From the IMG/VR virus record IMGVR_UViG_3300020385_000660, positions 832 through 64,831 of that record: a stretch of 64,000 nt of DNA; one strand, written 5' to 3'. The notes beneath the pieces were generated by a model. The model saw nothing but the letters and a program-made list of their open reading frames with translations, had not been told where the DNA came from and ran no database searches. This stretch comes from a virus. Its lineage: Duplodnaviria; Caudoviricetes. The translations under genes were made by a program, and so were the position numbers. Shown piece after piece: positions 12,058 through 42,396 of the stretch (position 1 is the first letter of the stretch; every line of letters begins with the position of its first letter).

Positions 12058-13285
12058 TGAAGAGAAATTTAATATTATTAAACAATCAATTGCAGGGCAA
12101 ATAGAAGGCCCTGCATACAAAGCTATAGAAACTGCTGAGCAACAAGCTTTGCAATCTACTACAGAGGAAGCGCCCCAGTCTGAACAACAATCACAAATAC
12201 CGCAGACTCCTGTGGGCCCTCCCCCTGCTCAAACTATACCACGAGTGTATGATGAGATGGGATCTTTAATTGAACCTGGCTCAACAGGAGTAGGATTAAA
12301 TCAAATGGCTGGAACAAGTCATGGTCAAACTATACAGCCTGGTGAATATGAAACAGGCGGTAAAAAAGATCCTCCATCTAACGCAGATAAAGCCAGAAAG
12401 TTTAGAATGATGCGCCCTGCACAAGGTGAGTATTTTGAAGGTCAAAAAGAAAACTCGCATTCTACGCATTTAGCGACAACGTATGAAGCTGATGGAAAAT
12501 ATTATGTTGTGCCTTCTATAACAAATAAAAAAGCTCCTTATGCAAATTATCAGCCGCAATCTTTTAGAGACGCGATGAATGCTGGAGAAGGTATACAGTT
12601 TGATACTGAAAAAGAGGCAATAAAATTTGCAGAAGGCAGCTGGAAACTACCTAAGTATCCTAGACCTGAATATAAAACAGGTGGACCAAAATCTAAAGCT
12701 CCTAAACCTTTAACAGAATCAGATGCTAAGCTAGAAGAAGAGTGGCCATTGATGTTACAAAAGCAAAGATTTGTTGAGTCTGGTTTTAATACTAATGCTA
12801 AAAGTAAAGCAGGAGCTATAGGCTCTGCGCAAATAATGCCAGATACATTGCAATATGCAAAAGATAAAGGTTGGGTAGGCAATGATGTTAAAATGAAGGA
12901 TCTTACTGGTGCGGATGGGTTTTCTATTTCACAGCACATTCAAGAAAAGTACATGGAAAATTTATTTAACAGAGAATGGAATAAAGGCTCAGACGAAGTT
13001 AAAACAGCTAAAGCATTATTAGCTTATAATTGGGGGCCTAATAGAACAAGAAAGAAATTAAATAAATTAAAAGCTAGAGGTGTTGATATTTACAGCAATA
13101 CTGAATTTTCTAAATATTTTAACAAGGAATCTAGAGAGTATAAAGGTAAAATATTAGACGACCTTACTACTAAAAAAGATCCGCACGTACAACGTGATTA
13201 TAATAAGCTAAAAGATCTTTCACCGCTTTTAAGAATGCATGGAGGACCTAAAGTGCTATATAATAATAAAAAATCAAAAAAATAA
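12047..13285 (+). CDS. virion-associated protein with lytic transglycosylase (SLT) domain
   Basis: VESGFNTNAKSKAGAIGSAQIMPDT and ALLAYNWGP are SLT motifs I-III. Confidence 0.82.
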   Translation: MLSSEEKFNIIKQSIAGQIEGPAYKAIETAEQQALQSTTEEAPQSEQQSQIPQTPVGPPPAQTIPRVYDEMGSLIEPGSTGVGLNQMAGTSHGQTIQPGEYETGGKKDPPSNADKARKFRMMRPAQGEYFEGQKENSHSTHLATTYEADGKYYVVPSITNKKAPYANYQPQSFRDAMNAGEGIQFDTEKEAIKFAEGSWKLPKYPRPEYKTGGPKSKAPKPLTESDAKLEEEWPLMLQKQRFVESGFNTNAKSKAGAIGSAQIMPDTLQYAKDKGWVGNDVKMKDLTGADGFSISQHIQEKYMENLFNREWNKGSDEVKTAKALLAYNWGPNRTRKKLNKLKARGVDIYSNTEFSKYFNKESREYKGKILDDLTTKKDPHVQRDYNKLKDLSPLLRMHGGPKVLYNNKKSKK

Positions 13286-28100: not shown

Positions 28101-31100
28101 TGTAAATTCTGAAATTGGTATTGAGGTAGCGCCAGGAACAGTAGGGCCTAACAACGAATTACCTTGTGAACTTGCAGGATGTATGACTCCAGGAATGGAT
28201 AATTACAATGAATTTGCAACATATGATGACGGATCTTGTTATAAATATGGATGTATGGATAGCGGACTTATTGAGGCTGATTATTCTCCATACCCTGCTC
28301 CAATAACTTTAGAAGAATATTTAGCATTAAATCCAGACAATGGTGCTCTTGATTTTACTCCAGGTTTCCCTGCAGATAATTACGATGCTTTAGCAACTAT
28401 TAATCAAGTAAGTGATATTGACTCTTCTAACCCTTGCTTATATACAGGATGTACTGATTCATCTTCATTTAATTATAGTTCACTTTATACAACAACAGAT
28501 AATAGCACCTGTATAGATATAGTATCAGGATGTTCTGATAGATTTGCTGCTAATTATAATCCAAATGTAAATACTGAAAGTGGTACTTGCTGTCTTCAAT
28601 TGCTAGGTACGGATGCTGATAACGATGGAGTATTTGAATTACAAAATAATATATACGGTCACTCTATTACTTCTTATACGTATTCGGGAGTATCAGCTGC
28701 AGCTAAACCAATTTTATTTGAATTAGTAAATTATGATTGTGTGGGAGATGCAGATGTAGATTTACAATTTAAATCTGGTTATAACGTGTTACCAGATAAT
28801 TTATTAAACAGTGATGGTACACCTAAAGTTGGTAATATTACTATAAATGCATATCCTGAATCAGGAGGCACAATAGATGATACTGATACTACATTCCCTA
28901 CAATAACTAAAACTTGGTCTCAATTACAATCAGGGCCTGTTACAGTTGATATTTATAACTCAGCTCCAACTGTATTAGCAGTTTATATAAGAGTGCAATT
29001 TACTTACAGTAATTATTCTCAATCTAGTGAAGATGGAGAAAATGGAACAAGTTGTACATATTCAGTAGATTTACATTTAGATTCTGATTGCGCTTCTGTG
29101 TCAGGATGTACAGATGATGGATGGAATACTACAGCTATTGATGGGTTTAACGCTCTTAATTTAGGATTCCCGCAACAAGATTTTAATCCAAATGTAAATT
29201 TACATGTTTCTAGTGATTGTGATGGAGCGCATGTTTTAGGTTGTATGGATGAGCACTGGGCTATACCTGCAAATCAGCACGTAGGTGAAGGAGCTTCTAC
29301 AACGCAAACATCTTGGGATAATTTTAATTATAATATTGCTGCCACTGGTAATGATATTCAAGGAAATGCATATGACGGATATAGCGCAACTCCTACTATT
29401 AATATGTATGATGACACCTATCTTGGTAATAGTACTGGTTCATTATACGGTACAAGTTTGGGGGCATATCACCCAATATATGCTGATTTAAATTTACTTG
29501 ATGATACAGATCCTGAAAGTGCTCAACACTCAGGGACTCCGTCGCCTAATACATTTGAAGGTTCAGTATATGGATGTTTCCCTAAAGTATATGGATGTAC
29601 AAATAATGCTAAATTTAATTGGAATAACTGGTATCACGCAGGAAATATAAATCCTACAACAGGAACTAATTATACTGGAACTGAATTTGGTGCATTAAAC
29701 TTTGGTACTCAGTATCATCAAGATCCTACTATAAATCCTAATACTAATCTTGCTTGGACGTTTGACGAACTAGTAAGAAATGAGCACTATTTATATAATG
29801 TAAATACTGCAGGTACTACTCAAGGTAATGCTACTGACACATGTTTCAATGTAGTTGGAGGATGTACTGATTCAACTGCTGCAAACTTTGTTACTCCATC
29901 GGGAGGATCAGCAACTACAACAGAAGGAGCATTAGCTGCTTCAGAAGGTTTAGGAAGTAACGTAAACACAGAAAATAACTCATGTTGTTATGATGCTAGT
30001 GATTTACCAGCTGATGTTGATTATCCTTTCAGTGTAACTCCAGCATGTAGTACATTACCTGTAGTTTATGACACTAATATTTATAATACTTTAGACTTTA
30101 CTTCAGGATGGTCAAATCTAACAAGTGGTACAGCTGTTGCTATTCCTCACGCTACTTCTGTTATTTTTGCAACAACTTCAGGTTTTCCTAATGTATACGT
30201 ATTAGACGCTTTAGCAAATTTAGATGTTGGAAAAAGATATGAAATAACTATAACAGGTCTGGTTTCATCTGGGCAAGTTACTGCAGCTATATATTGTGCA
30301 AATGAAGCAAAAGTAGCTGCTTTAAGTGGAGATCCTATTGCAGACTTTGTTGCTGATTTAACAACTCCTAATAATGGTACTGGAGTAGGAGGACAAAATG
30401 GGAATTCCTTTTATGAGACTGTAACAAGTACACAGACATTTATTACGCCAACAATTCAAACTGGATTTAAAGATATAATATTACTATTATATGGTACTGT
30501 TAATTCTGCTACATTTGCAATAACTAATATAGATATAAAAGAATGGAAACATCCTAGTCATGGTGTAACAACCAATATTCTTTTAGATAGTTGGCCAGAA
30601 TTAGTAAATGGTGTAATTGATTATTCTCAAATAACATCTATAACTGCAGAAACTCAAAATGCAAGTAGTGGTGCAATTTATAATTCAGGTTCTAAAACAC
30701 TAGCTGATTTCCAGAATGGTGTTGATTTATACACTTATATATATAATGATGCAGCTTCAAATGCTGAAACTTCAGGTACTTACAATTCTACTTATAATAT
30801 AGGAGGAACTAATAACTCTGATGGAAGTTTTGTAGATCCTAATCTAGCTACAAAAATTGTATATACAATTAATTATAATGCTGAAAATGGTTCTGCATGT
30901 AGCTCAAATGCTATTGTAGTTACAAAAAATATTGGTGGAACTGGTATTGCTGCAAGTGATACTAGATGTAGCACTGTTTATGGTTGTATAGATAATACGT
31001 ATTTACAATTTTATTTAAATAACAATGCTGGAAATGCGTCAGCTATTAATAACTTTACTTGGGGTGATTCACATGGAGCCACTATAGATAATGGATCTTG

Positions 31101-34100
31101 TACTACTGTTGTAGCATCTGGATGTGTAAATGCAAATTATGTAGAAGCATACCCAAATAAACAAGAAGCTTTAACGCCTAATTGGGCAAGTGAAGATACA
31201 GAGTTTACAGAATTTACTAATACTCAATTATTTACTCCTGAAGGAAATCCTGTATACGGATTCTTAGGAACAATTGGTACAAGTATTCCTGCGGGACCTA
31301 GTCAAACTTATCCTAATGTTGTAACAAATATTTCCAATGTAGGTTTATGTGAAGATGAAATTATCTATGGATGTGTATTAGATCATTTTGCTGAATATTG
31401 GGGAGCTCAATCTACACCTTCAAATTCAAATACGATTTTTGGAATAAATAGTAATCAAGGTTCATTTATAAGTGAAGCTAATAATATTAAATCTTGGGCT
31501 AACGTCTCTTTAGAGAATGACCCTTCAAATGCATTATCTGGTGTATCCGAAAATCACGCTCTATTATTAGGATGTGGGAATTTAACTACTCCTAAAATTG
31601 GTTGTGTAGAGCCTGTACAATATGTAGATTATACATACCCAGGAGCTACTAGTATTACAACTAATATACAAACATCTTGGTGTAACTATGACCCTTTACA
31701 CAATATAAAGGCACCGGCTAATAGTAATAACGATTGTCAAGGTTTAATAGGATGTGTAGATCCTGCCTATATAGAATTTGATGGTATTTCTACAACTTCG
31801 CCTGCTGCTAATATTACTAATGTTGGAGATGCATTTAGTTGTAATCATTTAGGAAGCTATTTGAACAATTATATAACCAACTATACCGGTACTCTTTTCT
31901 CTAGTCCACATTACCCTGAACATGCTGTATCACTTAGTATTAATCCTTGTGGAATTGAATCAATTCCTGGTTGTACAGATTCCGATTATGTTGAATATAA
32001 TCCAGATGCAAATGTTTACGAGCAAGGAGCATGTCAAACTATTATTGTACAAGGGTGTACAGATACTAATTATTGTGAATACTACACAGGGGCTCAGAAT
32101 ATACCAGGAATTGGAGTAATACATCCTACAGTTTCAATTGACGGAGCTTGTCAGACATCAATAGGATGTACTAATCCTTTGTATTTAGAAGCTTACAATG
32201 AGAACTATGACGCTACTAATTTAGAATTAACTGGAGATGCAGTTTATGGAACTCCAACAAATGGGTGTACTAGTTTTACTCCTTCGGGAATATCCTTAGC
32301 AACATTTTTAAGCTCAAATCCAAATAATACTGTCCAACAATATCAAAATGCGGGATGTACTACTCCAATTGTAGTGGGGTGTACAGATAACACTAAAGAT
32401 GAGAACGGAAATAATTTGTATTTAAATTACAATCCAAATGCAAATTTAGCATGTTATGATGGAGAAACTTATAATTCATGTTGTTTTGAAGCTATACCTG
32501 GATGTACAGATGGTTCTATAAATGAACTTACAGGTAATTTAAATTATGTAAACTTTAATTCAGCAGCTACTTTAGATGATGGTTCTTGTATTCCAGCCAT
32601 TGAAGGATGTACTCAAAGTGGTCAATTTGGATTTGATGTAGGAGCTAATTTAGATAATGGATCTTGTTTGCCAGTTATTACAGGATGTTTAAATGAAACT
32701 TTCCCATATAATGGAACAGATACTCCATCAGCTAATCAAGTTGCAGGATATGATCCTACAGATCCTAATACAATTACATATCCTAATACACATCTAGATT
32801 CTGAATGTTTCCCTATTATCGAAGGTTGTACTGATCCTACAGCAATGAATTATAATAATATAGGTCCAGTGCCTACAGATCCTATTCCTTTAGATACTAG
32901 TGCTAATGCAAACTTTATAAATGTAAATACAGATAATAATACTTGTCTTTACATTTTAGATGGTTGTATGGATCCTTGTGCAAATAACTATGATCCAAAT
33001 GCTACAGTATCTGGCACTTGCTTCTATACTGCAGGATGTACAGATTCTCAAGCTTACAACTATGAACCTGATACAAATCAAAACGATGGTTCTTGTTTGT
33101 ACTGTGAAGATTGGTCTGCTACAACGGTAGGTTCTCCGTATATACAAGTTACTGATAATACATCATTTATAAACGGTGTAAGTTCTGAAGACGGAGCTAT
33201 ATCAATAACTCCAATATCTACTAGTGGTGTAACTACAGGTTATAGTGTACGTTGGTATTACTCTACACCAGACAATAGTGTGCAAGGTCAGCCATTACCA
33301 CAATATAACGATGCTATTTCTCTTACAGGATTAGCTCCTGGATATTATAGTTTTGAATTGTACAGTTCTTCTAGTCCTAATTGTGCTCCTGGCTCATCTA
33401 CACAAGGTTACCCTGCAGTACAAAGTCATGTTCATTCAGGTGTAAATTGTAGTTTTGATGAAGGAGAAGAGCAATCATATGTTGTTTCACCGGGCCCACA
33501 CTTGCAATTTGTACTTGTGCTCACTGACGGAGTTGGGTGTACAGATAGTGCAGGAATAGAATATAGTCACAATTCCTTGGGCGAGCTTAATCTTACAGCA
33601 GAAGGAGGAACTTTTAATACGTATACTCCTGGCGCTTCTACAACTACTACGCTATCTGCTAGTAATTATGATTCTTTTGCAAATGTAGATGATGGTAATT
33701 GTGTGTATCCTGGATGTACTGATCCTTCGGCATTAAACTACAGCGCATCTGCTACGGTAGAAAGCGGAACTTGTATTTACATTCAAGGATGTCAAGATCC
33801 ATTAGCTTGTAATTATAATCCTGAAGCTACTGTTTATGGACCATGTTCATACAAAGCTATATACAGAGACTGTAATGGTGTTTGTTTAAGTGGTGAAGTT
33901 ACTGATAGTAATCCTCTTGGAGAGTCTTTACAATTCCCAGGATTATGTCCTGAACAAGTATTATCAGATTGTATAGATACAGAAGCTATTAACTTCCAGC
34001 CGGTAGTAAATCAAACAAGAGTTATACCAGGAGGATCTTCTCAACGTATGAGAATTGTTACAGCTCCTGTAGCTATAGAAGATGATGGATCTTGTGTATA

Positions 34101-34770
34101 TGAAAATCCTTGTATACCTACAGATATTTATGATATAATTGATGCTTTAGCAGATACAGTTAATGATCAAGGTAGAACAGTTTTAACTAATCTTCGTACA
34201 GGAATGTTAGATCCTGCAGATGTTGCTACTATGTGGACATTAATGTTAGTAGATTATGTAGTTAACAAAGTAGGATTTGACGGATTCTATAATTGTGCAG
34301 GATATAATTATGAGGGTCAAGTTACCTATACTGAAGGAGTTGATAGCACAAATTATTTTGATAAATTCCTTACATTTGCATTTAAGCAAGGGGATGAGCA
34401 TTTTGCAGGAGTACAAAGTAATAGATCTAGAGCACTTGTTTCTTCTGCTAGCAATATGACTAAACAAGCTTCTAGAAACGCACTTGGATTAAATGATGTT
34501 GTAACTTCAAATTGCAACTGTCAAATAATCTGCACAGATGGTAGAGAGTGGATGGCAAATTATGCGTGTGAAAGTAATTGTGATGAGTGCTGTTCAAATG
34601 CTAATGTGGAGCTTTGTGGAGGTTCTAAAAATACTACAAATATTCTTAGCAATACTTCTAACACAAGTTCTACTACAATTAATGTTACATCTGCTAGTAG
34701 TAATGTGTCCTACAGCACAAACGGACAATCAACGTCTATATCTAGAAATAACAGAAATAGAAATTATTAA
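19156..34770 (+). CDS. giant (5204 aa) fibre/adhesin-like protein with Cys-bracketed repeats
   Basis: Dozens of GC(T/M)DxxAxNYxxxAxxDDGSC repeats interspersed with beta-rich domains; no signal peptide; lies in the tail module. Confidence 0.75.
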   Translation: MAAKNWILSKPVTGKVIELRSGSEVLVVNEVYNFSLPTLKGVLINQKDYRHAALDGTVTTYQFEKFAAILPKLAFKVKAVLGVDKYIIEYLSDDRLLNLPPTTIPLSYFTRGEVTYFDEDSQKEVTYMIPTRLYEVPSLVGILDERCLNYTPLSQTDTGFTGECILNPDTFIDACTDGRAWNSLKTSNQKSSLEVYEASCKYDYTGFESEQALLRDPSVNAAARNGFNYIDIVYGEISYGVYQLGLGISPYLTGVTGSYWDLSYDPAVGFDATDGYDDATMPTVTLAPGTHVIAVQVDAAGGTSFIDSVTIIVSPNLSGCTDPNASNYNVNATVDDGSCIAMLKGCMDDGTSFSNTYYTGGFPVVQSVVPAIPGQAASNYNSAVTQHSPQMCTYKICTDAGANNYKNPDDIVNTDPSDGTTFPLNQTVQVDPTGPCTYEGQVNGCTDPGISNASFYNPGNIYNTFTVATTTGSTAVGGNVTMDPDNSHWNFNPHANTQSGRCIPKFIGCLDPLASNYVTPTGNPDIDVNWHIPSMCEYSACSDSSADNQHHLDGGATATDITVAGVDDWGYKADGSSWSETEYWIAEDLGTNTTLTTSSAQYNEDNTLCTFDVGLDDICGAGSPQILEDAVSQALQSNQIGYNNTAVVVGTYAGQLDPSTGNACLSQLTATQSATVAGISYQQVTQEKVFCQVISASNPVLYLTNPEINGTIVWNYTGSTGGGADINITNISDTDASNVSNALTAANYNNSLSPTAYYYFRVISAEDDPVNGLTLSRDFGTNPIIALFDDANITKVGYQQGSYYYVPGGAVSNFQAGDSNIDIPIGFAVGTDSDGNILSSTQSGAGGGGNNCSHATIDNGTAAAEPMYTIYRVEVANMCAYTALNFVIDADLSNVPDEITINNTPVFEGSSVGCTDPTATNYNSSATSQDLAANYMFGPGLPYTWPMALSDGYCYIEGCVDEYYTAADPSNNLIVSSSLISGTDIPLQVGIYMPDLGGYIYRIYNGEVWIVSIVDLGNSAEYTYDGALGAVAAYDGGGFNDWELPDAENLVAIYNNVSSPTSRVDIIIDPDEYWSSTLHSEGYAHTYNFASGPTLTTPRIVSYETQVRAVRSVPLSEVIDITTYNDNCGSGINQYGCTDPAASNYVAGATASPIVGDISSNCTYGFHIEDWTEGTNNYNDQIIALGYTDTVDEDGTVISTASENFANGQLSYSEQVGYEPYGTFIIHYSSVHAWNHPTKQGVILPSEPTCLSDRLVPFIPIQVSNGTPSSVTADPNLNFGYNQDGGFYTNRVQVIGKKDSNTDTINYTLYATNPELDSQYFYQLQSGSHLASNESTYLLGNSTSSILGAITSESAHSLAEQFASAGYVSSDNGGFTRKSNHAYYFRFDKNLSYSINPNTGLDWTPSEMLNDLFGNTNVFIKDMLGDAYWPALNFHNLNSYNVNSLDPQSNLYYSDDADYQHLSFGNFLSSRYDEPTTGNELITDYNFPDNNGGGEWTVVGATAVGPITFVDSGGGDYVARRTSTGNAITGLQQQIAVTPGKKYSITYKKKVNIAGTDTSYFDYAKTYVEIVPDGTNYGEAIEYAANQYFTDGTEQTVTDTFTYVGSATSIYVVLYLSGPWEGDITEFSIKQVDEYPDGYITQEFRDNTVACNDAKTPGYYLYQLIPDGSLDTYDFSPYFEYQDEVSGCMDDTALNYNSDATLTQGNYNDCLYYLTSCDGTNPEITVTPHDDTAVNGVGCAQAYDVTVNACPSVISNAQISIVLGQLQTNNTNSDIALPNGDILPALQSVYVPVLQIVDIEPCIEGIQQDDSPAVIASFTYDPTSEDYQFASISNEANISYITGGVGIAPNSDITYSSQFQIQYDEYYTDPDGNILFGGPNEISYEFSDSTLYNDNSLISPIIDGCTTVESFNYNPNATCDDGSCLEYVYGCTNPLAFNYNSDANTNDGTCIPYVYGCTDTEATNYTYNVNEVADNTNLIGTSTYGDISSVSSTFGPFPNASTNYDINTSVPEVCFYCPNLLGADGSTNQINVEYASDDTLPSFSNLRFTWNSNINSGDSSLSAATDVTVQVTIIYEEFSLTTAVEDGNTIYTINEYDIVSSVTDTEMYSYDQLEDGIILEYFKMPTTSTATRIKSLEFTAYYNPGPNGVNRCLQKINHVVDHSLYPNFLLGCTDSTAFNYYDNSDYTSSGLTTGIFVTDIDGNTTEINVITPPNSDNGLICQPVVEGCIDATADNYNAAANTDNGSCLYSGCTNNTASNYNPQANVDDGSCIIYGCTQSWGVNYNADATDDDGSCKTYGCTDATAYNTHWCLDASDPCFSNNSYTSSAIHSTTCYYQGCMDAGNGVNQPVINLANEFASESTSTYTLNDVLANVPAGITHNMNNQIAEVVSAPGNPGEQATNYSASNTISGTCYYEGCTDPNASNYEPNATTNDGTCVYEACIDETASNYGEGVTVTGNASEQTNIQNTCLGPNLLAPANSLNFNYWHAGINANIVQVNPVRIETNPSYVSGNPAARVVLSPFNPQITLSGGSLTTPSTYSILEYDETAGTNSAGVATTILYPEVAANSDVLVYNYNVQLSVQSVASGTTLTVRIKEYKNVTDINDLNVSNWGSSSTLPYTETGVTTLIYDSVSNLYIATGWTPHYQTELVVLEMSNLTSGDSVKINNITLARETCSDVVLTQEWFNGLVESGLNVSLDLDNAEALIPVGGLQNNDPYFITIRKYFNEALAYTTSWGGEFNLNPNNDLMPGHTGSTYFPDASNETWRRTWFVGDNMLRFVKITPEYVAKFKVSEWPYNPMNIADHLIPAPFNLDEPRVVLSQSSVTYGTDQLYRLDFKARLTPGNATSEKKSIGVSDYVGTETNQGGSTWYYSTEVNHLYSESGVYNAIPNNQNNYILESDWVEYTVYWYPTSNSNGIALYNYGQNDNYEFEVKHIRIERVVPSVYNTTTDTCYIFGCGASGLYPVGHANEGQPWATNYSADVNSEIGIEVAPGTVGPNNELPCELAGCMTPGMDNYNEFATYDDGSCYKYGCMDSGLIEADYSPYPAPITLEEYLALNPDNGALDFTPGFPADNYDALATINQVSDIDSSNPCLYTGCTDSSSFNYSSLYTTTDNSTCIDIVSGCSDRFAANYNPNVNTESGTCCLQLLGTDADNDGVFELQNNIYGHSITSYTYSGVSAAAKPILFELVNYDCVGDADVDLQFKSGYNVLPDNLLNSDGTPKVGNITINAYPESGGTIDDTDTTFPTITKTWSQLQSGPVTVDIYNSAPTVLAVYIRVQFTYSNYSQSSEDGENGTSCTYSVDLHLDSDCASVSGCTDDGWNTTAIDGFNALNLGFPQQDFNPNVNLHVSSDCDGAHVLGCMDEHWAIPANQHVGEGASTTQTSWDNFNYNIAATGNDIQGNAYDGYSATPTINMYDDTYLGNSTGSLYGTSLGAYHPIYADLNLLDDTDPESAQHSGTPSPNTFEGSVYGCFPKVYGCTNNAKFNWNNWYHAGNINPTTGTNYTGTEFGALNFGTQYHQDPTINPNTNLAWTFDELVRNEHYLYNVNTAGTTQGNATDTCFNVVGGCTDSTAANFVTPSGGSATTTEGALAASEGLGSNVNTENNSCCYDASDLPADVDYPFSVTPACSTLPVVYDTNIYNTLDFTSGWSNLTSGTAVAIPHATSVIFATTSGFPNVYVLDALANLDVGKRYEITITGLVSSGQVTAAIYCANEAKVAALSGDPIADFVADLTTPNNGTGVGGQNGNSFYETVTSTQTFITPTIQTGFKDIILLLYGTVNSATFAITNIDIKEWKHPSHGVTTNILLDSWPELVNGVIDYSQITSITAETQNASSGAIYNSGSKTLADFQNGVDLYTYIYNDAASNAETSGTYNSTYNIGGTNNSDGSFVDPNLATKIVYTINYNAENGSACSSNAIVVTKNIGGTGIAASDTRCSTVYGCIDNTYLQFYLNNNAGNASAINNFTWGDSHGATIDNGSCTTVVASGCVNANYVEAYPNKQEALTPNWASEDTEFTEFTNTQLFTPEGNPVYGFLGTIGTSIPAGPSQTYPNVVTNISNVGLCEDEIIYGCVLDHFAEYWGAQSTPSNSNTIFGINSNQGSFISEANNIKSWANVSLENDPSNALSGVSENHALLLGCGNLTTPKIGCVEPVQYVDYTYPGATSITTNIQTSWCNYDPLHNIKAPANSNNDCQGLIGCVDPAYIEFDGISTTSPAANITNVGDAFSCNHLGSYLNNYITNYTGTLFSSPHYPEHAVSLSINPCGIESIPGCTDSDYVEYNPDANVYEQGACQTIIVQGCTDTNYCEYYTGAQNIPGIGVIHPTVSIDGACQTSIGCTNPLYLEAYNENYDATNLELTGDAVYGTPTNGCTSFTPSGISLATFLSSNPNNTVQQYQNAGCTTPIVVGCTDNTKDENGNNLYLNYNPNANLACYDGETYNSCCFEAIPGCTDGSINELTGNLNYVNFNSAATLDDGSCIPAIEGCTQSGQFGFDVGANLDNGSCLPVITGCLNETFPYNGTDTPSANQVAGYDPTDPNTITYPNTHLDSECFPIIEGCTDPTAMNYNNIGPVPTDPIPLDTSANANFINVNTDNNTCLYILDGCMDPCANNYDPNATVSGTCFYTAGCTDSQAYNYEPDTNQNDGSCLYCEDWSATTVGSPYIQVTDNTSFINGVSSEDGAISITPISTSGVTTGYSVRWYYSTPDNSVQGQPLPQYNDAISLTGLAPGYYSFELYSSSSPNCAPGSSTQGYPAVQSHVHSGVNCSFDEGEEQSYVVSPGPHLQFVLVLTDGVGCTDSAGIEYSHNSLGELNLTAEGGTFNTYTPGASTTTTLSASNYDSFANVDDGNCVYPGCTDPSALNYSASATVESGTCIYIQGCQDPLACNYNPEATVYGPCSYKAIYRDCNGVCLSGEVTDSNPLGESLQFPGLCPEQVLSDCIDTEAINFQPVVNQTRVIPGGSSQRMRIVTAPVAIEDDGSCVYENPCIPTDIYDIIDALADTVNDQGRTVLTNLRTGMLDPADVATMWTLMLVDYVVNKVGFDGFYNCAGYNYEGQVTYTEGVDSTNYFDKFLTFAFKQGDEHFAGVQSNRSRALVSSASNMTKQASRNALGLNDVVTSNCNCQIICTDGREWMANYACESNCDECCSNANVELCGGSKNTTNILSNTSNTSSTTINVTSASSNVSYSTNGQSTSISRNNRNRNY

Positions 34771-35213: not shown

Positions 35214-36464
35214 ATGGCAATTAGAGTAAACAGATCTTTAGTAACAAGTGCGGCTGACTTACAGATAAGTAGTAACAGTGAAAAACTACAACAAGTAGAT
35301 TTTATAAGTTTTACTACTAAAAGTGATGAGCCTGTTGGTATTGTTATTTACTCTACTACTAATGATACTAGTTCATTTCCTAATGAAAAAATTAATTTAC
35401 ATCAATTTAGTATTACAAGTAAAACTCCAAAAATTTTATTAAAAGAAGATTTTCCTATTGGAGACGCTAACGAATATTTATTTGGTAATGATTCATCGTA
35501 TAATAAACTCTTTGTAGCTGTCTCTAGCTCTGAAGATGTTTCAGATAGAGTAATTGTTCACTACTCTGTTACAGATGTAAGTGTATCAGCAGATTACACA
35601 ACAGAAATGATACAAGATATTGTTGGAGCTATGTTTACAGGTAATACTGAAACTAATATTGCTGCAACATATGAAGACTCTGATGGTACAATAGATCTTG
35701 CGTCTGTAGATACTAATACTACATATTCTGCTTTTGATAATGATAATGCGGGATTAGTTCCTGACCCAGGTAGTACCGGGACAACTACTAAATATTTAAG
35801 AGAAGATGGATCATTTCAAGTTCCTCCTGATACTAACACTACTTATTCTGAAGCTACAAGTTCTGCAGAAGGGCTTATGTCCACTGCACATCATGACAAG
35901 CTTGATGGAATAGCGGCAGGTGCAGAAGTTAATGTACAAAGTGATTGGAATTCTGCAAGTGGAGATAATCAAATACTTAATAAACCTGCTCTTGTAAATC
36001 CAGCATCTGTAACTGTATTTCCTAGCTCAGTTGCTACAGGAAACATATTATGGAAGCAAGCTAAAGTAACTCTTTCAGAAGCACAATTAAATTCTTTACA
36101 TTCAACTCCAATAACCTTAGTTGCAGCTCAAGGAGCTGATACAATTATTATGTGCGGAGACGCAATATCTCTTATAGATAGAGATTCTAGTACGGCGCAA
36201 TCAGCATCTACTTGTGATTTAATTATAGGATACAATAGTACAACTACTTATACTGAAGCTATATTATACGAAAGAAGATTTATGTATAATGAATCAGGAG
36301 ATAGAACTTGGTCGTTAAAAGCAGATTATAGTGGAGAAGTTGCATCAAGTTTAACAGGAGCTGTTAATGTCCCTGTTACTATAGCATTTACTAATGCTTG
36401 TACTTCTGGTAGTTTAGATTCAGTAACAATATATTTACAATATTACGTAATAGATAATTCATAA
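35214..36464 (+). CDS. tail/head fibre protein
   Basis: EMIQDIVGAMFTGNTETNIAATYEDSDGTIDL, DTNTTYS repeats and GLMSxxxxxKLDGIAAGAEVNVQSDWN are common phage fibre motifs. Confidence 0.75.
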   Translation: MAIRVNRSLVTSAADLQISSNSEKLQQVDFISFTTKSDEPVGIVIYSTTNDTSSFPNEKINLHQFSITSKTPKILLKEDFPIGDANEYLFGNDSSYNKLFVAVSSSEDVSDRVIVHYSVTDVSVSADYTTEMIQDIVGAMFTGNTETNIAATYEDSDGTIDLASVDTNTTYSAFDNDNAGLVPDPGSTGTTTKYLREDGSFQVPPDTNTTYSEATSSAEGLMSTAHHDKLDGIAAGAEVNVQSDWNSASGDNQILNKPALVNPASVTVFPSSVATGNILWKQAKVTLSEAQLNSLHSTPITLVAAQGADTIIMCGDAISLIDRDSSTAQSASTCDLIIGYNSTTTYTEAILYERRFMYNESGDRTWSLKADYSGEVASSLTGAVNVPVTIAFTNACTSGSLDSVTIYLQYYVIDNS

Positions 36465-36955
36465 TGGCATTAAATAATAAAAAATACCAAAAATTTTATA
36501 GTACATCTGGATCAGATGCAGATAAAATAGATGCCAATAAATTAGCTAAAATTAAAGATTTATGGGATAAGGATGCTGCTTCAGGGCGTAATGTAATTAT
36601 GTTAGATGACCCTCATATAGGTCCTCTTTTATACCAATTACAACAAATGCAAGATGAATTTGATTCTATCAGAGATCATATTGTAAATGATGTTGTAGGA
36701 CAACAAGGTGCTACAGGCCCACAAGGGCCTCAAGGTTCAGCTGGTAGTAACGGTGCTGCAGGTGCTGCAGGAGCAAAAGGAGATAAAGGAGATACAGGTA
36801 ATGCTGGAGCAAAAGGGTCTACAGGTTCTACTGGGCCTGCTGGTCCTGCACAAACAGATCCATCAAAATTAGATGGTACTAAATTACCTACAAGTAGTAA
36901 AAATTTACCCACAGGTACTTTTTGGAATGATAAAGGAGTAGTAAAAATAGCATAA
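36464..36955 (+). CDS. collagen-like (Gly-X-Y) fibre protein
   Basis: Uninterrupted GXY run GQQGATGPQ...GPAGPA after a coiled coil. Confidence 0.8.
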   Translation: MALNNKKYQKFYSTSGSDADKIDANKLAKIKDLWDKDAASGRNVIMLDDPHIGPLLYQLQQMQDEFDSIRDHIVNDVVGQQGATGPQGPQGSAGSNGAAGAAGAKGDKGDTGNAGAKGSTGSTGPAGPAQTDPSKLDGTKLPTSSKNLPTGTFWNDKGVVKIA

Positions 36956-36956
36956 T

Positions 36957-37169
36957 ATGGAAATATTTAAAGATAATAATAATTGGAATGAAAAGGCAGT
37001 TGTAGGCTTTATAGCTTTTGCAATCATGTGCCTTATAATGGTAGCCGATCTTGTAACAGGATGGGTGGGTACCGATTTAGTAATTAACGAGTTTGTATAT
37101 GACTCATTTGTATGGGTTGTCCTAGGGTGCTTTGGTATCTCAGGAGTAGAAAAATTTGCTAAAAAATGA
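36957..37169 (+). CDS. two-TM membrane protein, holin-like
   Basis: 70 aa, two hydrophobic helices, C-terminal GVEKFAKK. Confidence 0.6.
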   Translation: MEIFKDNNNWNEKAVVGFIAFAIMCLIMVADLVTGWVGTDLVINEFVYDSFVWVVLGCFGISGVEKFAKK

Positions 37170-39403
37170 GAAAATTAATTTACATATTATTAATATTAAC
37201 TCTAGCAACAAACGCTCAAGATAGTATATTTGTAGACTGTGTAGGAAATGAAGCTCCTGAAAATTGGTTAGGAGATGGCTATTGTGATAATGAAGCTTAT
37301 GCTTGGGGTGGTAATTTTATTGACTTTAATTGTGAAGAGTTTGGTTACGATAACGGAGATTGTCCTATACCAATAGATACTGTACCAGGATGTATGAACA
37401 TGTTGGCATTAAACTATGTACCAGAAGCTAACTTTAATGATGGCTCTTGCGAGTTTCCTGTATTTGGATGCACAGACCCAGAAGCTCCTAATTTTAACCC
37501 TTGGGCAGAAGCTGATGACAATAGTTGTGTCGGTGTAAGCTGCTCTGATGGTGAAGCCAAGATGATTTTGGAGCTTACTCTAGACCAATACCCTGGTGAA
37601 ACAGGATGGATACTAACAGACATAACTACAGGACAACCTGTAGACAACGTAGTAGCAGGAGAGTATTCATACGAAGAAGCAAATCAAACTATTGTATACG
37701 ATTTATGTGTGCCTGAAACAGGTGTAGAACTTATATTAAGCGATATATACGGTGACGGTTTAGAGGGATCTTTATTTGGTGGTACAGACGGTAATTTTGT
37801 AATACTTGGTGATGCAGAGCCTTGTGGTAGCTTGGATACATTATGGGCATTAGATACTGCAGGTTTTGGTAGTGCTGCTTATTCAGGACCTATATGGTTA
37901 GAGCAATGTGATTTACCTATTGTAGAAGGATGTACTAATAATACATATATAGAGTTTAATCCAGGAGCCAACTTTGATGACGGTAGCTGTGAAACACTAC
38001 ACACACTAGGATGTATAAACCCTAACGCATTTAACTTTAATCCACAAGCTACATTAAACGAAATAGTACCTACATGTAATTACACTCTTATTATAGAAGA
38101 TGACGGTGGTGACGGATGGGGTGACTGTTATATAGGTGTAGTGCAAGAAGACAGTATTCTTGGTACATATACTATGGGACCTGGCTCTTACTCACAAGAG
38201 TTTGGTATAACACTAGAAACAGATAAGCCTGTAAAGGTATATTACTTTGAAATAGCTAGCCCACAAACTCCTGCTGCAGAAGTCGCTTTCCAGACTATGC
38301 ATAACTCATTTAGACTTATTAATTCAGCAGGCGATATATCTTTGCAAGGTGGTGTGTATCCATTTGCAGATAATGGTGCTGGAGCTTTAAAAGCATATGC
38401 CCCTCCTTTTTGGCAAGTGTATACAGGCCTTCCTTTTTGCGGAGATTACTGTATACCTACAGTGTACGGGTGTTTGGATGAACAATCTTTAAACTATAAC
38501 TCTGACGCAAATACCAATGATGGTTCTTGTATTGAGATAGTAGAAGGTTGTACCTCACCCTTCGCATTTAATTACGATTCGCTTGCTAATGTAGATGATA
38601 ACAGTTGTGTGCCTGTTGTAGTTGGTTGTATGGATAATGTAGCTTGGAATTATAACTTTGCAGCTAATACTGAAGATGGTTCCTGCCTATACTTTGGGTG
38701 TATGGATGAAGCAGCTGATAACTATGATCCTATAGCTAATGTGGATAATGGAGCTTGCTTTACTACTGTGTTTGGCTGTACCGATCCAGAAGCTTTCAAC
38801 TACAATGAAGAGGCAAATACAGAGGATTTTAGTTGTGTGCCATTTATATATGGTTGTATGGATAGTACAGCATTTAATTACGATCCATTAGCAAATACAG
38901 ACGATGAATGTGAAAGTATTGTAGAAGATTGTATGGATATTCTAGCTTACAATTATAATGAGTTTGCTAACACGGAAGGAGAATGTTTGTATGATGCAGG
39001 ATGCATTGATGGTCCCGGCATACCATATTGGTTAAACGATTCATGTTATGCTTGGGTTATTATGATAGATCCATATTGCTGTAATAACGAGTGGGACGAT
39101 AAATGCCAACAAATATATTGGAGTTGTTCTTGGGATAGTCCATTAGATACAAGAGATTTACTTAGAGGGCACGACATAGTTATGTATCCTAATCCTATGG
39201 GCGATATATTAAATATATTAATAAATGGACCTGTAGGCATAGAAGTATATGATGTGTCAGGAAAACTTGTAATACGAGTTAACGAAAGTCAAACTTCAAA
39301 AGGTTTAAATCAATTAGATGTAAGTTTATTACCTGCAGGAATATATAATTTTAATATCACATATGATAATAACATTAGCACAACAAAAGTATTAAAGCGA
39401 TGA
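37166..39403 (+). CDS. secreted protein with T9SS type A C-terminal sorting domain
   Basis: Sec signal MRKLIYILLILTLATNA-Q; LNR-like WLGDGYCD..C..FGYDNGDC; GCxD repeats; CTD MYPNP..DILNI...VYDVSGKLV...LDVSLLPAGIY...TTKVLKR. Confidence 0.88.
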   Translation: MRKLIYILLILTLATNAQDSIFVDCVGNEAPENWLGDGYCDNEAYAWGGNFIDFNCEEFGYDNGDCPIPIDTVPGCMNMLALNYVPEANFNDGSCEFPVFGCTDPEAPNFNPWAEADDNSCVGVSCSDGEAKMILELTLDQYPGETGWILTDITTGQPVDNVVAGEYSYEEANQTIVYDLCVPETGVELILSDIYGDGLEGSLFGGTDGNFVILGDAEPCGSLDTLWALDTAGFGSAAYSGPIWLEQCDLPIVEGCTNNTYIEFNPGANFDDGSCETLHTLGCINPNAFNFNPQATLNEIVPTCNYTLIIEDDGGDGWGDCYIGVVQEDSILGTYTMGPGSYSQEFGITLETDKPVKVYYFEIASPQTPAAEVAFQTMHNSFRLINSAGDISLQGGVYPFADNGAGALKAYAPPFWQVYTGLPFCGDYCIPTVYGCLDEQSLNYNSDANTNDGSCIEIVEGCTSPFAFNYDSLANVDDNSCVPVVVGCMDNVAWNYNFAANTEDGSCLYFGCMDEAADNYDPIANVDNGACFTTVFGCTDPEAFNYNEEANTEDFSCVPFIYGCMDSTAFNYDPLANTDDECESIVEDCMDILAYNYNEFANTEGECLYDAGCIDGPGIPYWLNDSCYAWVIMIDPYCCNNEWDDKCQQIYWSCSWDSPLDTRDLLRGHDIVMYPNPMGDILNILINGPVGIEVYDVSGKLVIRVNESQTSKGLNQLDVSLLPAGIYNFNITYDNNISTTKVLKR

Positions 39404-40485
39404 AAATGTACAATCGAATATATGAATTATTAGCAGCAATTGGAATTGGTCTATTATTTTCTTTTCTTATGCTTGCCTTGTCTCAGGGGTGTAACGCTCA
39501 AGGAGTTAAAAATATATTTAAGTACTCTACTATGTATGCTGCAGTTAATGGAGGCACATCATTAGGAGACGATCAAGTATGGTCTGTAACGTCAGGTACG
39601 TTAGAAGAGCAAGTTATAGAAACACCTTTTGATTACACATTTTCTGTAGGTATTAGAAAGATAAAACGATTTGGATATGAGAACAGAGCCAACACTTTTT
39701 ATAATGGTACGGAAAATTCTTATTCTGATGCCGCGACCATCGGTAGAGTTGATGGCTTTGAGTATTTGTTCGAAGCTGATTTTGTACGTCGTTTAGGTGT
39801 TAACTATACAAACCAGCATCACTTTGTAAGATATGTTGCAGATAAGTGGGTTAGTAAAGTAGAGTACTTAGAAGATGGATTTGCTGATATAAAATACTTT
39901 GAAAGTTCTGAGCGCATTCGTTTAAAAATAGGCGCGAATGAAAAGTTTTCTTTTAATATAGGCGCAGTTCAACGTCTTTCAGAGCCATATGGTTTTGACC
40001 CCCTGGCAGACTGGGTGCTGGACAATGGGACATTACACTATACATATTTGGCACTGCAAGAGGGATACAATATAACATTAGATGGACAATACTCAGCACC
40101 CAATGGAGAAATAGTAGCAACTAGTCAGGAAGTATGGGAAGAGGTTGTTATACCTCAAGTGATAGATGATTACGTAGAAGATCAAAGAAATGCATTACCT
40201 AATACAGTAGAGTATTCTGCAGTAGTAGGATTTGATTATTATCATTTTACAAAAGATTTTTGGTTTCATAGTTGGGGTAATGTATTACCCTATCATTTAA
40301 ACGATGGTAACGATTACTCTTATTATCAATACAATGGTAAAAACTGGATAGATTATTCAGGTGGTTTAATATTTGGTTATAGATTTAATAAAAGTTTAGG
40401 TGCATTTGTAGAAGGTAGATACAATAAGTATTGGAATCGACAATGGCATAACTTTAGTGTAGGAATTAATTATGTAATATTTTAA
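39400..40485 (+). CDS. putative outer-membrane beta-barrel protein
   Basis: Signal peptide ending CNA-Q, amphipathic aromatic strands, C-terminal beta-signal FSVGINYVIF. Confidence 0.75.
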   Translation: MKMYNRIYELLAAIGIGLLFSFLMLALSQGCNAQGVKNIFKYSTMYAAVNGGTSLGDDQVWSVTSGTLEEQVIETPFDYTFSVGIRKIKRFGYENRANTFYNGTENSYSDAATIGRVDGFEYLFEADFVRRLGVNYTNQHHFVRYVADKWVSKVEYLEDGFADIKYFESSERIRLKIGANEKFSFNIGAVQRLSEPYGFDPLADWVLDNGTLHYTYLALQEGYNITLDGQYSAPNGEIVATSQEVWEEVVIPQVIDDYVEDQRNALPNTVEYSAVVGFDYYHFTKDFWFHSWGNVLPYHLNDGNDYSYYQYNGKNWIDYSGGLIFGYRFNKSLGAFVEGRYNKYWNRQWHNFSVGINYVIF

Positions 40486-40487
40486 AA

Positions 40488-40772
40488 ATGGCAAAAGAAT
40501 TAAACGAAGATACAGCAGTACAAATAAGTATAAAGACTTTAGCAGGAATAGCTTTTGCAATGGCGGCTATAATTAGTGGGTGGTTTGTATTACAAGCAGA
40601 TATAGCAGAGGCTAAAAAATTACCTTTACCTGCAGATCCTGAAATCACACGTATGGAATACGATATGAAAGATCAGCTTATTAGACAGACTATTATGTCT
40701 ACACAAGAAGACGTAACAGAAATAAAAACGCAGATGCTGAGGATGGAAGATAAAATTGATAATTTAAAATAA
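40488..40772 (+). CDS. single-TM coiled-coil protein
   Basis: One TM helix, then a heptad coiled coil. Confidence 0.7.
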   Translation: MAKELNEDTAVQISIKTLAGIAFAMAAIISGWFVLQADIAEAKKLPLPADPEITRMEYDMKDQLIRQTIMSTQEDVTEIKTQMLRMEDKIDNLK

Positions 40773-40777
40773 ACGTT

Positions 40778-41119
40778 ATGAAAAATTTGTTTTTTACATT
40801 TATTTTTGTTACTTGTGGGATTGCAACAGCTCAAGATTTTTCTGATGGCATGGTAGCTGTTGAATTTAACGCAAGCTTTAACAAAAGTAATGAAATAACG
40901 TGGCTATCTAAGTTAACAGATTGTGAAACAGAAAGAGTAGATATAACAGCAGACTCAAGGTGGTCTAAAGAATATAAGATAGTGGTTGTGCCCACTATTG
41001 TAATATTTAATAATAACGAAGAAGTAAAAAGATTTCAAGCCAATATCATGATGACTATGGAAGCCACTAAAAAAGAAGTGCAAAATTCTATAGATGAAAT
41101 TGTGATGGAGGCTTTTTAA
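40778..41119 (+). CDS. exported thioredoxin-fold protein lacking CxxC
   Basis: Signal peptide ending ATA-Q; VAVEFNASFN at the DFWAxWCxxC position; YKIVVVPTIVIF cis-Pro loop; EEVKRF. Confidence 0.7.
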   Translation: MKNLFFTFIFVTCGIATAQDFSDGMVAVEFNASFNKSNEITWLSKLTDCETERVDITADSRWSKEYKIVVVPTIVIFNNNEEVKRFQANIMMTMEATKKEVQNSIDEIVMEAF

Positions 41120-41142: not shown

Positions 41143-41541
41143 ATGGCAACAGTAACAACAAAACTAACAGTAAATAGCTCTGACTTAGTTTCTAATACTT
41201 TAAGTTTAGCATTAACTTCTAAAGTAACTGCCTCACATACAACAGGTCTTGCAAGAGCTCCTATAACGTCAACTGCAAAAGGCACAGGTGCTGGGCAGGT
41301 AACATTATACACAGCAAATGATTTTGCAGCTACAGCGTATATGTATATTAAAAATACAGATTTAGCTGTAACAGATTATGTGTATGTGTATGCGGATACT
41401 GCATCAGATGATCCTGTTTTATTAAAATTAGCAGGAGGAGATTTTGCGCTTTTACCTTTAAGTGCAGACACTACATTAAAAGCGTATACAGCAACCAGTG
41501 GTACTATTGTAGAATGGATGGTATTCGGAACAGACGCATAG
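41143..41541 (+). CDS. small beta-rich virion structural protein
   Basis: 132 aa, Thr/Ala-rich, YMYIKNTD motif. Confidence 0.6.
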   Translation: MATVTTKLTVNSSDLVSNTLSLALTSKVTASHTTGLARAPITSTAKGTGAGQVTLYTANDFAATAYMYIKNTDLAVTDYVYVYADTASDDPVLLKLAGGDFALLPLSADTTLKAYTATSGTIVEWMVFGTDA

Positions 41542-41542
41542 T

Positions 41543-42010
41543 ATGAGACTAAGTAAAAACTTTGTGTTATCAGAGATTACTCGAAGTAACACAGCAAAAA
41601 GAATAGGCATAAGTAATGAGCCAACGAAGAAACACATGGAAAATATCCAAAGGATTATCACAAATCTTATACAACCTATGCGCGACGCTCTTGGTCCTAT
41701 CAGGATTAGTAGTGGTTATCGCAACCCGCAACTCAATCGTGCTATTGGTGGGAGTAATCGTAGCCAGCATTGTAAAGGTGAAGCTTTGGATCTCCAGTTT
41801 TGGAAGGAAGGTCAAATGTGTAATAAAGAAGTTTACGACTGGATTTTAGATTCAGGATTAGAGTTTGATCAGATGATTAATGAGTTTGATTTTGCTTGGA
41901 TACATATATCTTTAAGAAAAGATGGGAATAGAAAAGATGTCTTAGAAGCTTATAAAGATGAGGATGGAGATACTAAATATAAATATGTTGACGATATAAT
42001 AATACTATAA
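41543..42010 (+). CDS. endolysin, peptidase M15A family
   Basis: LSKNF, ISSGYR, SQHCKGEALD, WIHIS zinc-ligand motifs. Confidence 0.9.
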   Translation: MRLSKNFVLSEITRSNTAKRIGISNEPTKKHMENIQRIITNLIQPMRDALGPIRISSGYRNPQLNRAIGGSNRSQHCKGEALDLQFWKEGQMCNKEVYDWILDSGLEFDQMINEFDFAWIHISLRKDGNRKDVLEAYKDEDGDTKYKYVDDIIIL

Positions 42011-42396
42011 TGAGTAAATTATTAGATTTTTTAGGTGGAGGAGTTGTTAAGCAAGTCGGTGATGTGCTTGACAACCTTACTACGTCCAAAGAAGAAAAAC
42101 TAGAAGCTGAGCGTAAGATAAAAGAAGTTCTTATGCAAGCAGAAGCTCAAGCGCAAGAGCAGGTTACTAGACGTTGGGAGGCTGATATGAAATCTGATAA
42201 TTGGCTTAGCAAAAACATACGACCATTAATATGTATATTCTTAACAGCAATGTTTGTTATTATTTCAATTTTTGATGGAAACGCTGGAGGCTTCCAAATA
42301 GCCCCAGCCTATATACCAATATATCAAACCTTATTGATAACTGTTTATGGAGCCTACTTTGCAGGAAGGTCTATAGAAAAAATTAAGAAAAAATAA
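42010..42396 (+). CDS. holin (3TM gene-transfer-release type)
   Basis: RWEADMKSDNWLSKNIRP...AYFAGRSIEK; directly after the endolysin. Confidence 0.82.
   Translation: MSKLLDFLGGGVVKQVGDVLDNLTTSKEEKLEAERKIKEVLMQAEAQAQEQVTRRWEADMKSDNWLSKNIRPLICIFLTAMFVIISIFDGNAGGFQIAPAYIPIYQTLLITVYGAYFAGRSIEKIKKK

Follow-up and report, generated by a model that had tools for sequence, protein, structure and literature searches.

The sequence analysed here, hereafter the window, comprises 64,000 of the 64,831 bases of IMG/VR record IMGVR_UViG_3300020385_000660 (CheckV completeness about 70%), which belongs to an uncultured marine crAss-like phage. Between its fibre genes and its lysis genes lies a cassette of five genes, named A to E. 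Three of them, encoding a modelled outer-membrane beta-barrel (C), a predicted inner-membrane protein (D) and a protein with a predicted thioredoxin fold (E), form a trio that is confined to phages and moves between unrelated phage lineages. As read from their sequences, C, D, E and probably A would constitute an accessory part of the lysis cassette that is found only in phages and would act on the envelope late in infection. The trio may be a lysis-linked trans-envelope device that replaces a spanin, and B would be a variable addition to it. This explanation is placed first, although we hold it at somewhat less than even confidence, because the predicted parts extend over both membranes and the periplasm, because the three genes are inherited together and lie beside holins, and because no spanin could be recognised. 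The five genes are as follows.

36957 to 37169, + strand: A, a small membrane protein of 70 residues with two hydrophobic helices.
37166 to 39403, + strand: B, a Cys-rich, predicted exported protein of 745 residues with a type A sorting domain of the T9SS (type IX secretion system) at residues 673-745.
39400 to 40485, + strand: C, an outer-membrane beta-barrel of 361 residues and about 14 strands in an AlphaFold2 model.
40488 to 40772, + strand: D, a predicted inner-membrane protein of 94 residues, in which a membrane helix at the N-terminus is followed by a Pro-rich linker and then by an amphipathic helix that resembles a coiled coil.
40778 to 41119, + strand: E, a predicted exported protein of 113 residues whose homologue profile indicates a thioredoxin fold without CxxC.

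A overlaps B, and B overlaps C, by 4 bases, while the gaps between C and D and between D and E are 2 and 5 bases long. These open reading frame (ORF) coordinates are exactly those of the tightly coupled block (36957-41119) that the first-pass annotation, an earlier reading of the window, had placed between the fibre genes and the endolysin and holin genes. That annotation had also pointed to three signal peptides with Gln at +1. The N-termini of B, C and E do combine a basic residue with a hydrophobic stretch and then read TNA-Q, CNA-Q and ATA-Q, respectively, and a small residue followed by Gln is kept at the cleavage place in the homologues of all three. According to its accessible text, PMC5837995 describes a Bacteroidetes Q-rule for signal peptides that this pattern fits, and cleavage before Gln is predicted for B, C and E.

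The distribution of the genes was followed in three sets of 80 IMG/VR loci, each chosen through C. The flanks of these loci reached only 6-8 kb, and their ORFs came from a simple ATG-start caller. Set 1 contained the loci with a close C homologue (51-88% identity), set 2 was obtained with seed P0133 (C about 30-35% identical) and set 3 with seed P0168 (C 26-30% identical). A further seed, P0184, found no relative in the viral scan. C, D and E occurred together in 209 of the 240 viral loci (78/80, 65/80 and 66/80 in sets 1 to 3), that is, across three barrel clades 26-88% identical to C, which answers the doubt raised in the first-pass annotation that the genes might not co-occur elsewhere. By tblastn, set 1 contained D and E in 78/80 loci each, B in 76/80, the endolysin in 58/80 and the holin in 50/80. 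The loci missing B (four, at the locus start) or both D and E (two) were all cut off at the relevant end. Such counts for D, E and B exclude a chance grouping.

The arrangement of the genes was less constant than their presence. In set 1 the orders B-C-D-E, D-F-F-E-B-C, A-D-E-x-B-C and C-x-x-D-E-B were found; D adjoined E, or only paralogues of F (a small ORF described below) intervened, and B adjoined C in all mapped loci except L060. In set 2, C was present in 78/80 loci and lay 499-3724 bases from D. Set 3 displayed a compact D-E-C block, and 13 of its 14 loci without D had fewer than 600 bases upstream of C. In every trio locus of set 2 (65/65) and set 3 (66/66), D was a direct neighbour of E. 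Since the order varies (C-D-E, C..D-E, D-E-C, D-E-B-C), selection appears to act on the co-occurrence of the three genes and not on simple synteny.

The phages that carry the trio are not all related. A search for the crAss capsid was negative in all five set-2 records examined, three of them 96-100% complete, while the control on the window's own record (G000) gave an E-value of 4e-78. The sorting-domain hidden Markov model (HMM) detected 74/75 of the B proteins of set 1 and gave no match in sets 2 and 3. Because the trio occurs without a detectable T9SS tag and in non-crAss phages, B is an add-on, fast-changing and observed only in the barrel clade of the window. The five genes had been proposed as one unit; this holds for C, D and E, which are co-inherited, and not for B.

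Cellular genomes were also searched. A scan of 185,579 prokaryotic species genomes, one per species, with the D alignment returned seven loci, all on contigs of metagenome-assembled genomes (MAGs) labelled Flavobacteriales, Winogradskyella, Nitrosopelagicus, Parvibaculum, Rickettsiales, Maricaulis and Woesearchaeota. These look like misbinned phage contigs, because they are scattered over unrelated taxa. No isolate genome with C or D was found among those searched. The trio is therefore phage-only, and the capture of a contiguous host locus, which the first-pass annotation had kept in view, does not account for it.

The lysis genes of the window come within 430 bases after the cassette, separated from it by one small ORF:

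41143 to 41541, + strand: F, an ORF of 132 residues without export signal, hydrophobic segment or family match.
41543 to 42010, + strand: endolysin, peptidase M15 (PF08291, E-value 2.3e-16; phrog_894, E-value 5.4e-34).
42010 to 42396, + strand: holin, GTA_holin_3TM / phrog_3427 (PF11351, E-value 2.7e-07; phrog_3427, E-value 7.1e-29).

The holin is directly followed by the tail ring 2 gene, and on the other side the cassette is bordered by a collagen-repeat fibre gene (36464-36955) and a gene for a fibre-like protein of 416 residues. F, detected by tblastn in only 14/80 set-1 loci, probably lies outside the module.

The same neighbourhood recurs in the other clades. Within 1.5 kb of the trio, a holin was found in 133/209 loci (53/78 in set 1, 30/65 in set 2 and 50/66 in set 3, the last search being seeded from L188) and an M15 endolysin in 53/78, 26/65 and 0/66 loci, respectively. 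When the distance was extended to 5 kb, 44/65 set-2 loci had a holin. The set-3 holins belonged to phrog_3427 in the three loci annotated (3/3). In locus L068 a non-orthologous endolysin (phrog_2649/amidase) directly follows E, and in the complete 28.8-kb genome G006 the late operon runs from the portal gene to a C-x-A-D-E-endolysin-holin end; none of the 40 ORFs scanned in G006 matched a spanin PHROG. As for the window itself, a strict lipobox scan of its whole + strand revealed no o-spanin candidate, and a lax scan of the region 34.7-45.6 kb returned only Cys13 of protein E, a residue missing in the homologues. The canonical lipoprotein spanin pair, already noted as not evident in the first-pass annotation, was thus not found by either + strand scan. 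C and E were also considered as lipoproteins themselves and rejected, the Cys of their signal peptides not being conserved in homologues. Among the roles suggested earlier, lysis or release is favoured, because a holin or an endolysin adjoins the trio in three barrel clades; superinfection exclusion and adhesion received no specific support.

Proximity to a holin would also be expected if the module governed when lysis occurs. According to such an explanation, D, together with A, would control the phrog_3427 holin or the endolysin in the manner of an antiholin or a releasin, and C and E would form an envelope sensor, for instance of superinfection or of the state of the envelope. The most constant neighbour of the trio is indeed one holin family, and the conservation and position of A also speak for this explanation. 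A has hydrophobic segments at about residues 10-43 and 46-64, matched no family in profile searches and was found by tblastn in 46/80 set-1 loci. It is much more conserved than C: in set-2 loci L105, L121 and L167 it is 82-91% identical despite a C only about 33% identical. A homologue 47% identical is present in the cultured Flavobacterium phage vB_FspM_immuto (MW353176.1, 43369-43677), directly upstream of genes annotated as 'putative chitinase' and 'holin', and another occurs in Caulobacter phage Cr30, in an uninformative context. A may be a widespread membrane protein of lysis cassettes in its own right. Its two hydrophobic segments and its position in the lysis cassette, both here and in vB_FspM_immuto, are also what a class II (two-helix) holin or antiholin would have. 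The size and layout of D (N-terminal membrane helix, short periplasmic helix) are, we presume, also those of small lysis regulators. Against a regulatory role, the profile searches gave no homology to any antiholin. We know of no precedent for a sensor built on a barrel of 330 residues, and outer-membrane disruption would be left without an agent in the genomes where no spanin is seen. We therefore regard a timing device as quite improbable.

By predicted topology, D and A belong to the inner membrane, E to the periplasm and C to the outer membrane. Together with a T9SS-tagged B at the cell surface, these are the compartments that had been proposed for the cassette, and sequence and predicted folds agree with that assignment. 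For C, an AlphaFold2 model based on 38 homologues (mean predicted local distance difference test, pLDDT, 83.8; predicted template modelling score, pTM, 0.74) displayed about 14 strands. Its structural matches, both with Foldseek and with VIA, which is independent of Foldseek, were outer-membrane barrels only, with none outstanding; the best were NanC (E-value 2.4e-5), OmpG and CymA (Z 10.9), EstA (10.7) and TamA (10.6). C also has the general features of an outer-membrane barrel, namely a signal peptide as read from the sequence, a closed antiparallel barrel in the model and a C-terminal aromatic residue, its last residue being F. Searches against Pfam, NCBIfam and PHROG gave no match. Its relatives form 3532 clusters at E-values up to 1e-3 in a database clustered at 90% (320 representatives at 50%), mostly from surveys of the ocean, and none of the clusters contains a Pfam domain. 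In an atlas comparison, barrels of other families look like C (scores 0.93) and are leads only. Taken together, the model indicates that C is an outer-membrane barrel outside any known family. Its best-conserved block, residues 81-120 (window 39640-39760), includes the near-invariant F91, Y93, G103 and E105 and overlaps the sole segment with pLDDT below 50 (residues 92-110). Such a conserved segment of low model confidence is as expected for a partner-binding region, and the block may serve for docking, as a loop, or form a plug.

Hydropathy places the hydrophobic segment of D at about residues 10-40, and a Pro-rich linker and a conserved helix follow it. In the best heptad register of this helix, 8/13 a and d positions are strongly hydrophobic, compared with 14/44 residues overall. 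Mean column identity in an alignment of 16 homologues was 75%. On these predictions D has the layout of an i-spanin, an N-terminal membrane helix followed by a coiled-coil-like helix in the periplasm. The atlas yielded DUF7365 and DUF2730 as look-alikes of D (scores 0.83-0.90), again as leads only; DUF7365 matched one of eight D homologues (1/8) at an E-value of 0.001, under its cut-off.

As a single sequence, protein E matched PF00085 under the cut-off (E-value 3.4e-4; 21 versus 23.5 bits). A profile of 17 homologues matched thioredoxins of the PDB, with a best E-value of 1.1e-8. In this alignment the thioredoxin CGPC falls on a gap of five residues, and no CxxC stands at the active-site place in any of the 17 homologues, which have FNAxFN/WN there instead. 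The cis-Pro loop VVPT is invariant in the 17 homologues, and the invariant residues of the protein fall at the classical substrate groove of thioredoxins. The redox-dead thioredoxin of the first-pass annotation is in agreement with both the profile and the missing CxxC. Among the 50,697 cultured-phage records, E found only weak matches, to thioredoxins of Streptomyces phages. The final residue of protein E, at position 113 (window 41114-41116), is a Phe that is invariant in the 17 homologues; barrel C ends in Phe as well. A fusion of D and E was considered for three longer proteins from the E search and rejected: in one, D is read through into E on a 701-base contig, and the other two are chimera-like and lie on short contigs. 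In the read-through protein (P0271, 217 residues), D runs into E including the signal peptide of E, and W replaces the stop of D, which points to a gene called with another code or to a mutated stop, and not to a true fusion.

The sorting domain of B (residues 673-745) exceeds the curated cut-offs of both PF18962 (47.7 bits versus 27; E-value 1.9e-12) and TIGR04183 (44.4 bits versus 23; E-value 1.2e-11), in accordance with its first description as a T9SS cargo, and 10 of 11 divergent B homologues retain the tag. B would be exported by Sec and then reach the cell surface through the host T9SS. It contains 39 Cys, and its Cys-bounded repeats are also found in a much longer ORF of the window:

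19156 to 34770, + strand: a giant ORF of 5204 residues, directly upstream of the fibre genes.

This ORF is made largely of short Cys-bounded repeats of the type GC.D..A.NY...A..DDGSC, and blastp between it and B gave many local matches, the best with an E-value of 1.9e-23. Residues 125-440 of B were modelled as two beta-sandwich domains (pLDDT 86) with generic fold matches only. Because of these central sandwiches and the repeats common with the giant fibre ORF, B looks like a binding protein and not an enzyme. B homologues are 690-1353 residues long and evolve faster than the trio; in locus L005 the identities are 57% for B, 84% for C, 91% for D and 83% for E.

The position of B directly before C raises the question of a surface display system, in which C would be the outer-membrane partner or anchor of an exported Cys-rich protein, D and E would aid its folding or delivery, and the infected cell would be decorated for adhesion or for binding a ligand of the virion fibres. 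The B/C overlap, the presence of B beside C throughout the mapped set-1 loci other than L060, its occurrence in all set-1 loci not cut at their start and the repeats common to B and the giant fibre ORF speak for this explanation. So does set 2, where an exported Cys-rich protein begins within 60 bases after C in 57/78 loci (motif filter applied to 67 downstream ORFs). This protein has an LDLa-like Cys motif, sub-threshold in Pfam, and aligns to B in its N-terminal part only (89% probability). It is 166-256 residues long, with an acidic repeat region (for example L105 8018-8788, L123 8017-8706 and L134 5322-6089, and 54 other loci). Its C-terminus resembles a shortened sorting domain by eye; this identification was rejected, hhalign giving 0.4% and Pfam no match. 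Phage-borne T9SS cargo also has precedents in the accessible text of PMC7468147 and PMC6949934.

Several results stand against surface display. C was compared with the PorP/SprF barrels and rejected as a relative of them: in hhalign its profile reached a probability of only 4.3% with 10 members of the family, taken from two Flavobacteriales MAGs, and the signal peptides alone aligned, and PF11751 matched neither C (at E-values up to 0.1) nor its 38 homologues (at E-values up to 1). The trio persists in sets 2 and 3, in which the sorting-domain HMM had no match, the compact D-E-C block of set 3 has no such partner beside C, and the module sits in a late operon beside lysis genes. To our knowledge, cargo with a type A sorting domain does not depend on a barrel of its own. 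Surface display is judged unlikely.

B could also act against other phages. If the module excluded superinfection or masked receptors, B and possibly C would occupy or mimic the receptor of the phage's own fibres, so that progeny would not be caught on infected cells or on their debris and rival phages would be barred. The fibre repeat modules of B and its rapid change relative to C, D and E, which is typical of host-contact proteins, are consistent with this, and phage-borne outer-membrane proteins are common according to the accessible part of a preprint (10.64898/2026.10.24.761521). However, exclusion would come late from genes that sit in the late operon for structure and lysis, in a phage that is probably virulent, and the trio persists without B. 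Of the explanations considered, exclusion appears to us the least probable.

For the spanin-replacing device, the following sequence of events is proposed. Late in infection, host Sec would export C and E, with signal peptidase I cutting before Gln, and the host BAM (beta-barrel assembly machinery) would insert C into the outer membrane. D would be anchored in the inner membrane and extend its helix into the periplasm, so that D, E and C could bridge both membranes through the cell wall. After the holin has fired and the endolysin has removed the wall, the D-E-C link would break the outer membrane or fuse it. B would travel separately to the cell surface, by Sec and then by the host T9SS, as a protein built of the Cys-bounded repeats of the giant fibre ORF. 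Export, the contacts among C, D and E, the effect on the outer membrane and the role of B are all projected from sequence and predicted structure.

A number of points weigh against this proposal. The periplasmic part of D, with about 58 residues, is short for spanning the periplasm, and the barrel would need assembly by BAM late in infection. The 4-base overlap of B and C and the Cys-rich protein beside C in set 2 point to a role of the barrel towards an exported partner, which the spanin model leaves unexplained. Adjacency to lysis genes equally fits functions in lysis timing or release. No holin lies within 1.5 kb in 76/209 trio loci, and five set-1 loci (L048, L053, L060, L076 and L079) have no recognised lysis gene nearby, many of the neighbours being unannotated. 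The lipobox scans had no positive control for phages of Bacteroidota. Finally, neither the region (blastn) nor C and D (tblastn) had a match among the 50,697 cultured-phage records.

The trio matches no characterised system. Two-component spanins such as lambda Rz/Rz1 are close in concept: the trio lies beside the endolysin and the holin, its parts would reach both membranes, and D combines an N-terminal membrane helix, a coiled-coil-like periplasmic helix and a Pro-rich hinge. Unlike in spanins, the outer-membrane partner is a barrel of 361 residues and not a small lipoprotein, and a thioredoxin-fold protein is added. The trio also lacks the embedded or overlapping gene pair, no sequence similarity was found, and the periplasmic part of D is short. 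The accessible text of 10.1101/515445 states that about 15% of phages lack spanins and that disruptin (gp28 of phage phiKT) is one known alternative. Disruptin is likewise a disrupter of the outer membrane, encoded with the lysis genes in a phage without spanins; however, it is a single small cationic peptide, compared with three exported or membrane proteins with defined predicted folds here. Candidate spanins, together with Q-rule signal peptides, are described for Porphyromonas phages in the accessible part of PMC10367356.

The barrel and its neighbour B may also be set beside known surface systems. Phage-borne barrels are reported in huge phages in the accessible part of 10.64898/2026.10.24.761521; some of them are marine and some have envelope-related neighbours. 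As reported there, these are mostly host-derived OmpA, OmpX, TonB-dependent receptors and porins, in genomes above 200 kb and with transport neighbours, whereas C has no cellular relatives, lies beside D, E and lysis genes and occurs in phages of 29-130 kb. T9SS cargo of phages is already in print. In the accessible text, the variable genes of 'Cryophage' carry such cargo (PMC7468147) and crAss-like gut contigs carry ORFs with T9SS sorting domains (PMC6949934); like gene B, these genes encode a type A domain, vary between related phages and presumably use the host T9SS. That cargo consists of enzymes or BACON-repeat proteins, and the accessible parts of both papers mention no linked trio or lysis context. 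A trio of barrel, helix protein and thioredoxin-fold protein was not found described in the literature searched, subscription journals and preprint supplements being outside that search. In the SprB/SprF type of Flavobacterium, the gene of a T9SS cargo has a PorP/SprF-like barrel gene beside it. Gene B, for a T9SS-tagged surface protein, is in the same way directly followed by barrel gene C; in contrast to that type, the tag of B is of type A and not B, C has no profile similarity to the 10 PorP/SprF proteins compared and the barrel also occurs without tagged cargo.

In its fullest form, the spanin-replacing proposal would add to spanins and disruptin a third class of agents with which phages disrupt the outer membrane, one that works as a protein machine. 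This would be a barrel-anchored trans-envelope link, exchanged together with one holin family among several unrelated marine Bacteroidota phage lineages. In the barrel clade of the window it would be coupled to a fibre-like protein, delivered by T9SS, by which the surface of the dying cell is marked or masked. We consider this extended version rather doubtful.

The phage itself was assigned to Crassvirales by its structural genes, in profile searches of the window: Crass_capsid (E-value 6.5e-77), muzzle (7.6e-56), Ring_1 (4.3e-51), Ring_2 (2.2e-38) and Ring_3_4 (1.4e-07). The GC content of the window is 31-38%, and from about 5.8 kb on nearly all genes are on the + strand. Near-identical DNA was present in marine and viral metagenomes from 9 studies. 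A host among the Bacteroidota is suggested by the T9SS tag and by Gln at +1, as well as by the genes of Crassvirales type. The phage is probably virulent. A tRNA search of the window found none. Promoter-like sites numbered 41, versus 50.2 expected from shuffled sequences, and terminator-like sites 8, versus 3.9 expected, about the shuffle level; neither scan was modelled on signals of Bacteroidota or of phages. One further wall-cutting gene was located:

12047 to 13285, + strand: an ORF of 412 residues with an SLT lytic transglycosylase domain (E-value 9.8e-09), between the portal and capsid genes.

This ORF probably encodes a virion-borne entry enzyme, distinct from the M15 endolysin. In RNA-seq libraries X5, X7, X8 and X12 (one study, two samples), contigs matched C, D and E as well as the endolysin and holin genes with 0-1 mismatches; such contigs cannot prove transcription, DNA carry-over being possible. 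Some RNA-seq contigs fuse the giant ORF, at its end, to B's repeat region (33053/38516, 33832/38840 and nearby). These joins are most likely assembly jumps over common repeats, or they come from relatives in which the repeats are ordered otherwise.

Bacteroidota are major degraders of marine algal carbon, and little is known of the way in which their phages break the outer membrane. The trio may be an undescribed way of opening it. Since the trio is widespread, phage-only, without characterised relatives and located beside holins in hundreds of ocean viral contigs, the question becomes testable. B adds the idea of a virulent phage that would use the secretion system of its host to put a fibre-like protein on the cell surface. 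If the proposed function is true, the trio would represent a new class of lysis proteins, would improve the annotation of marine viromes and would provide new tools for opening the envelopes of Bacteroidota.

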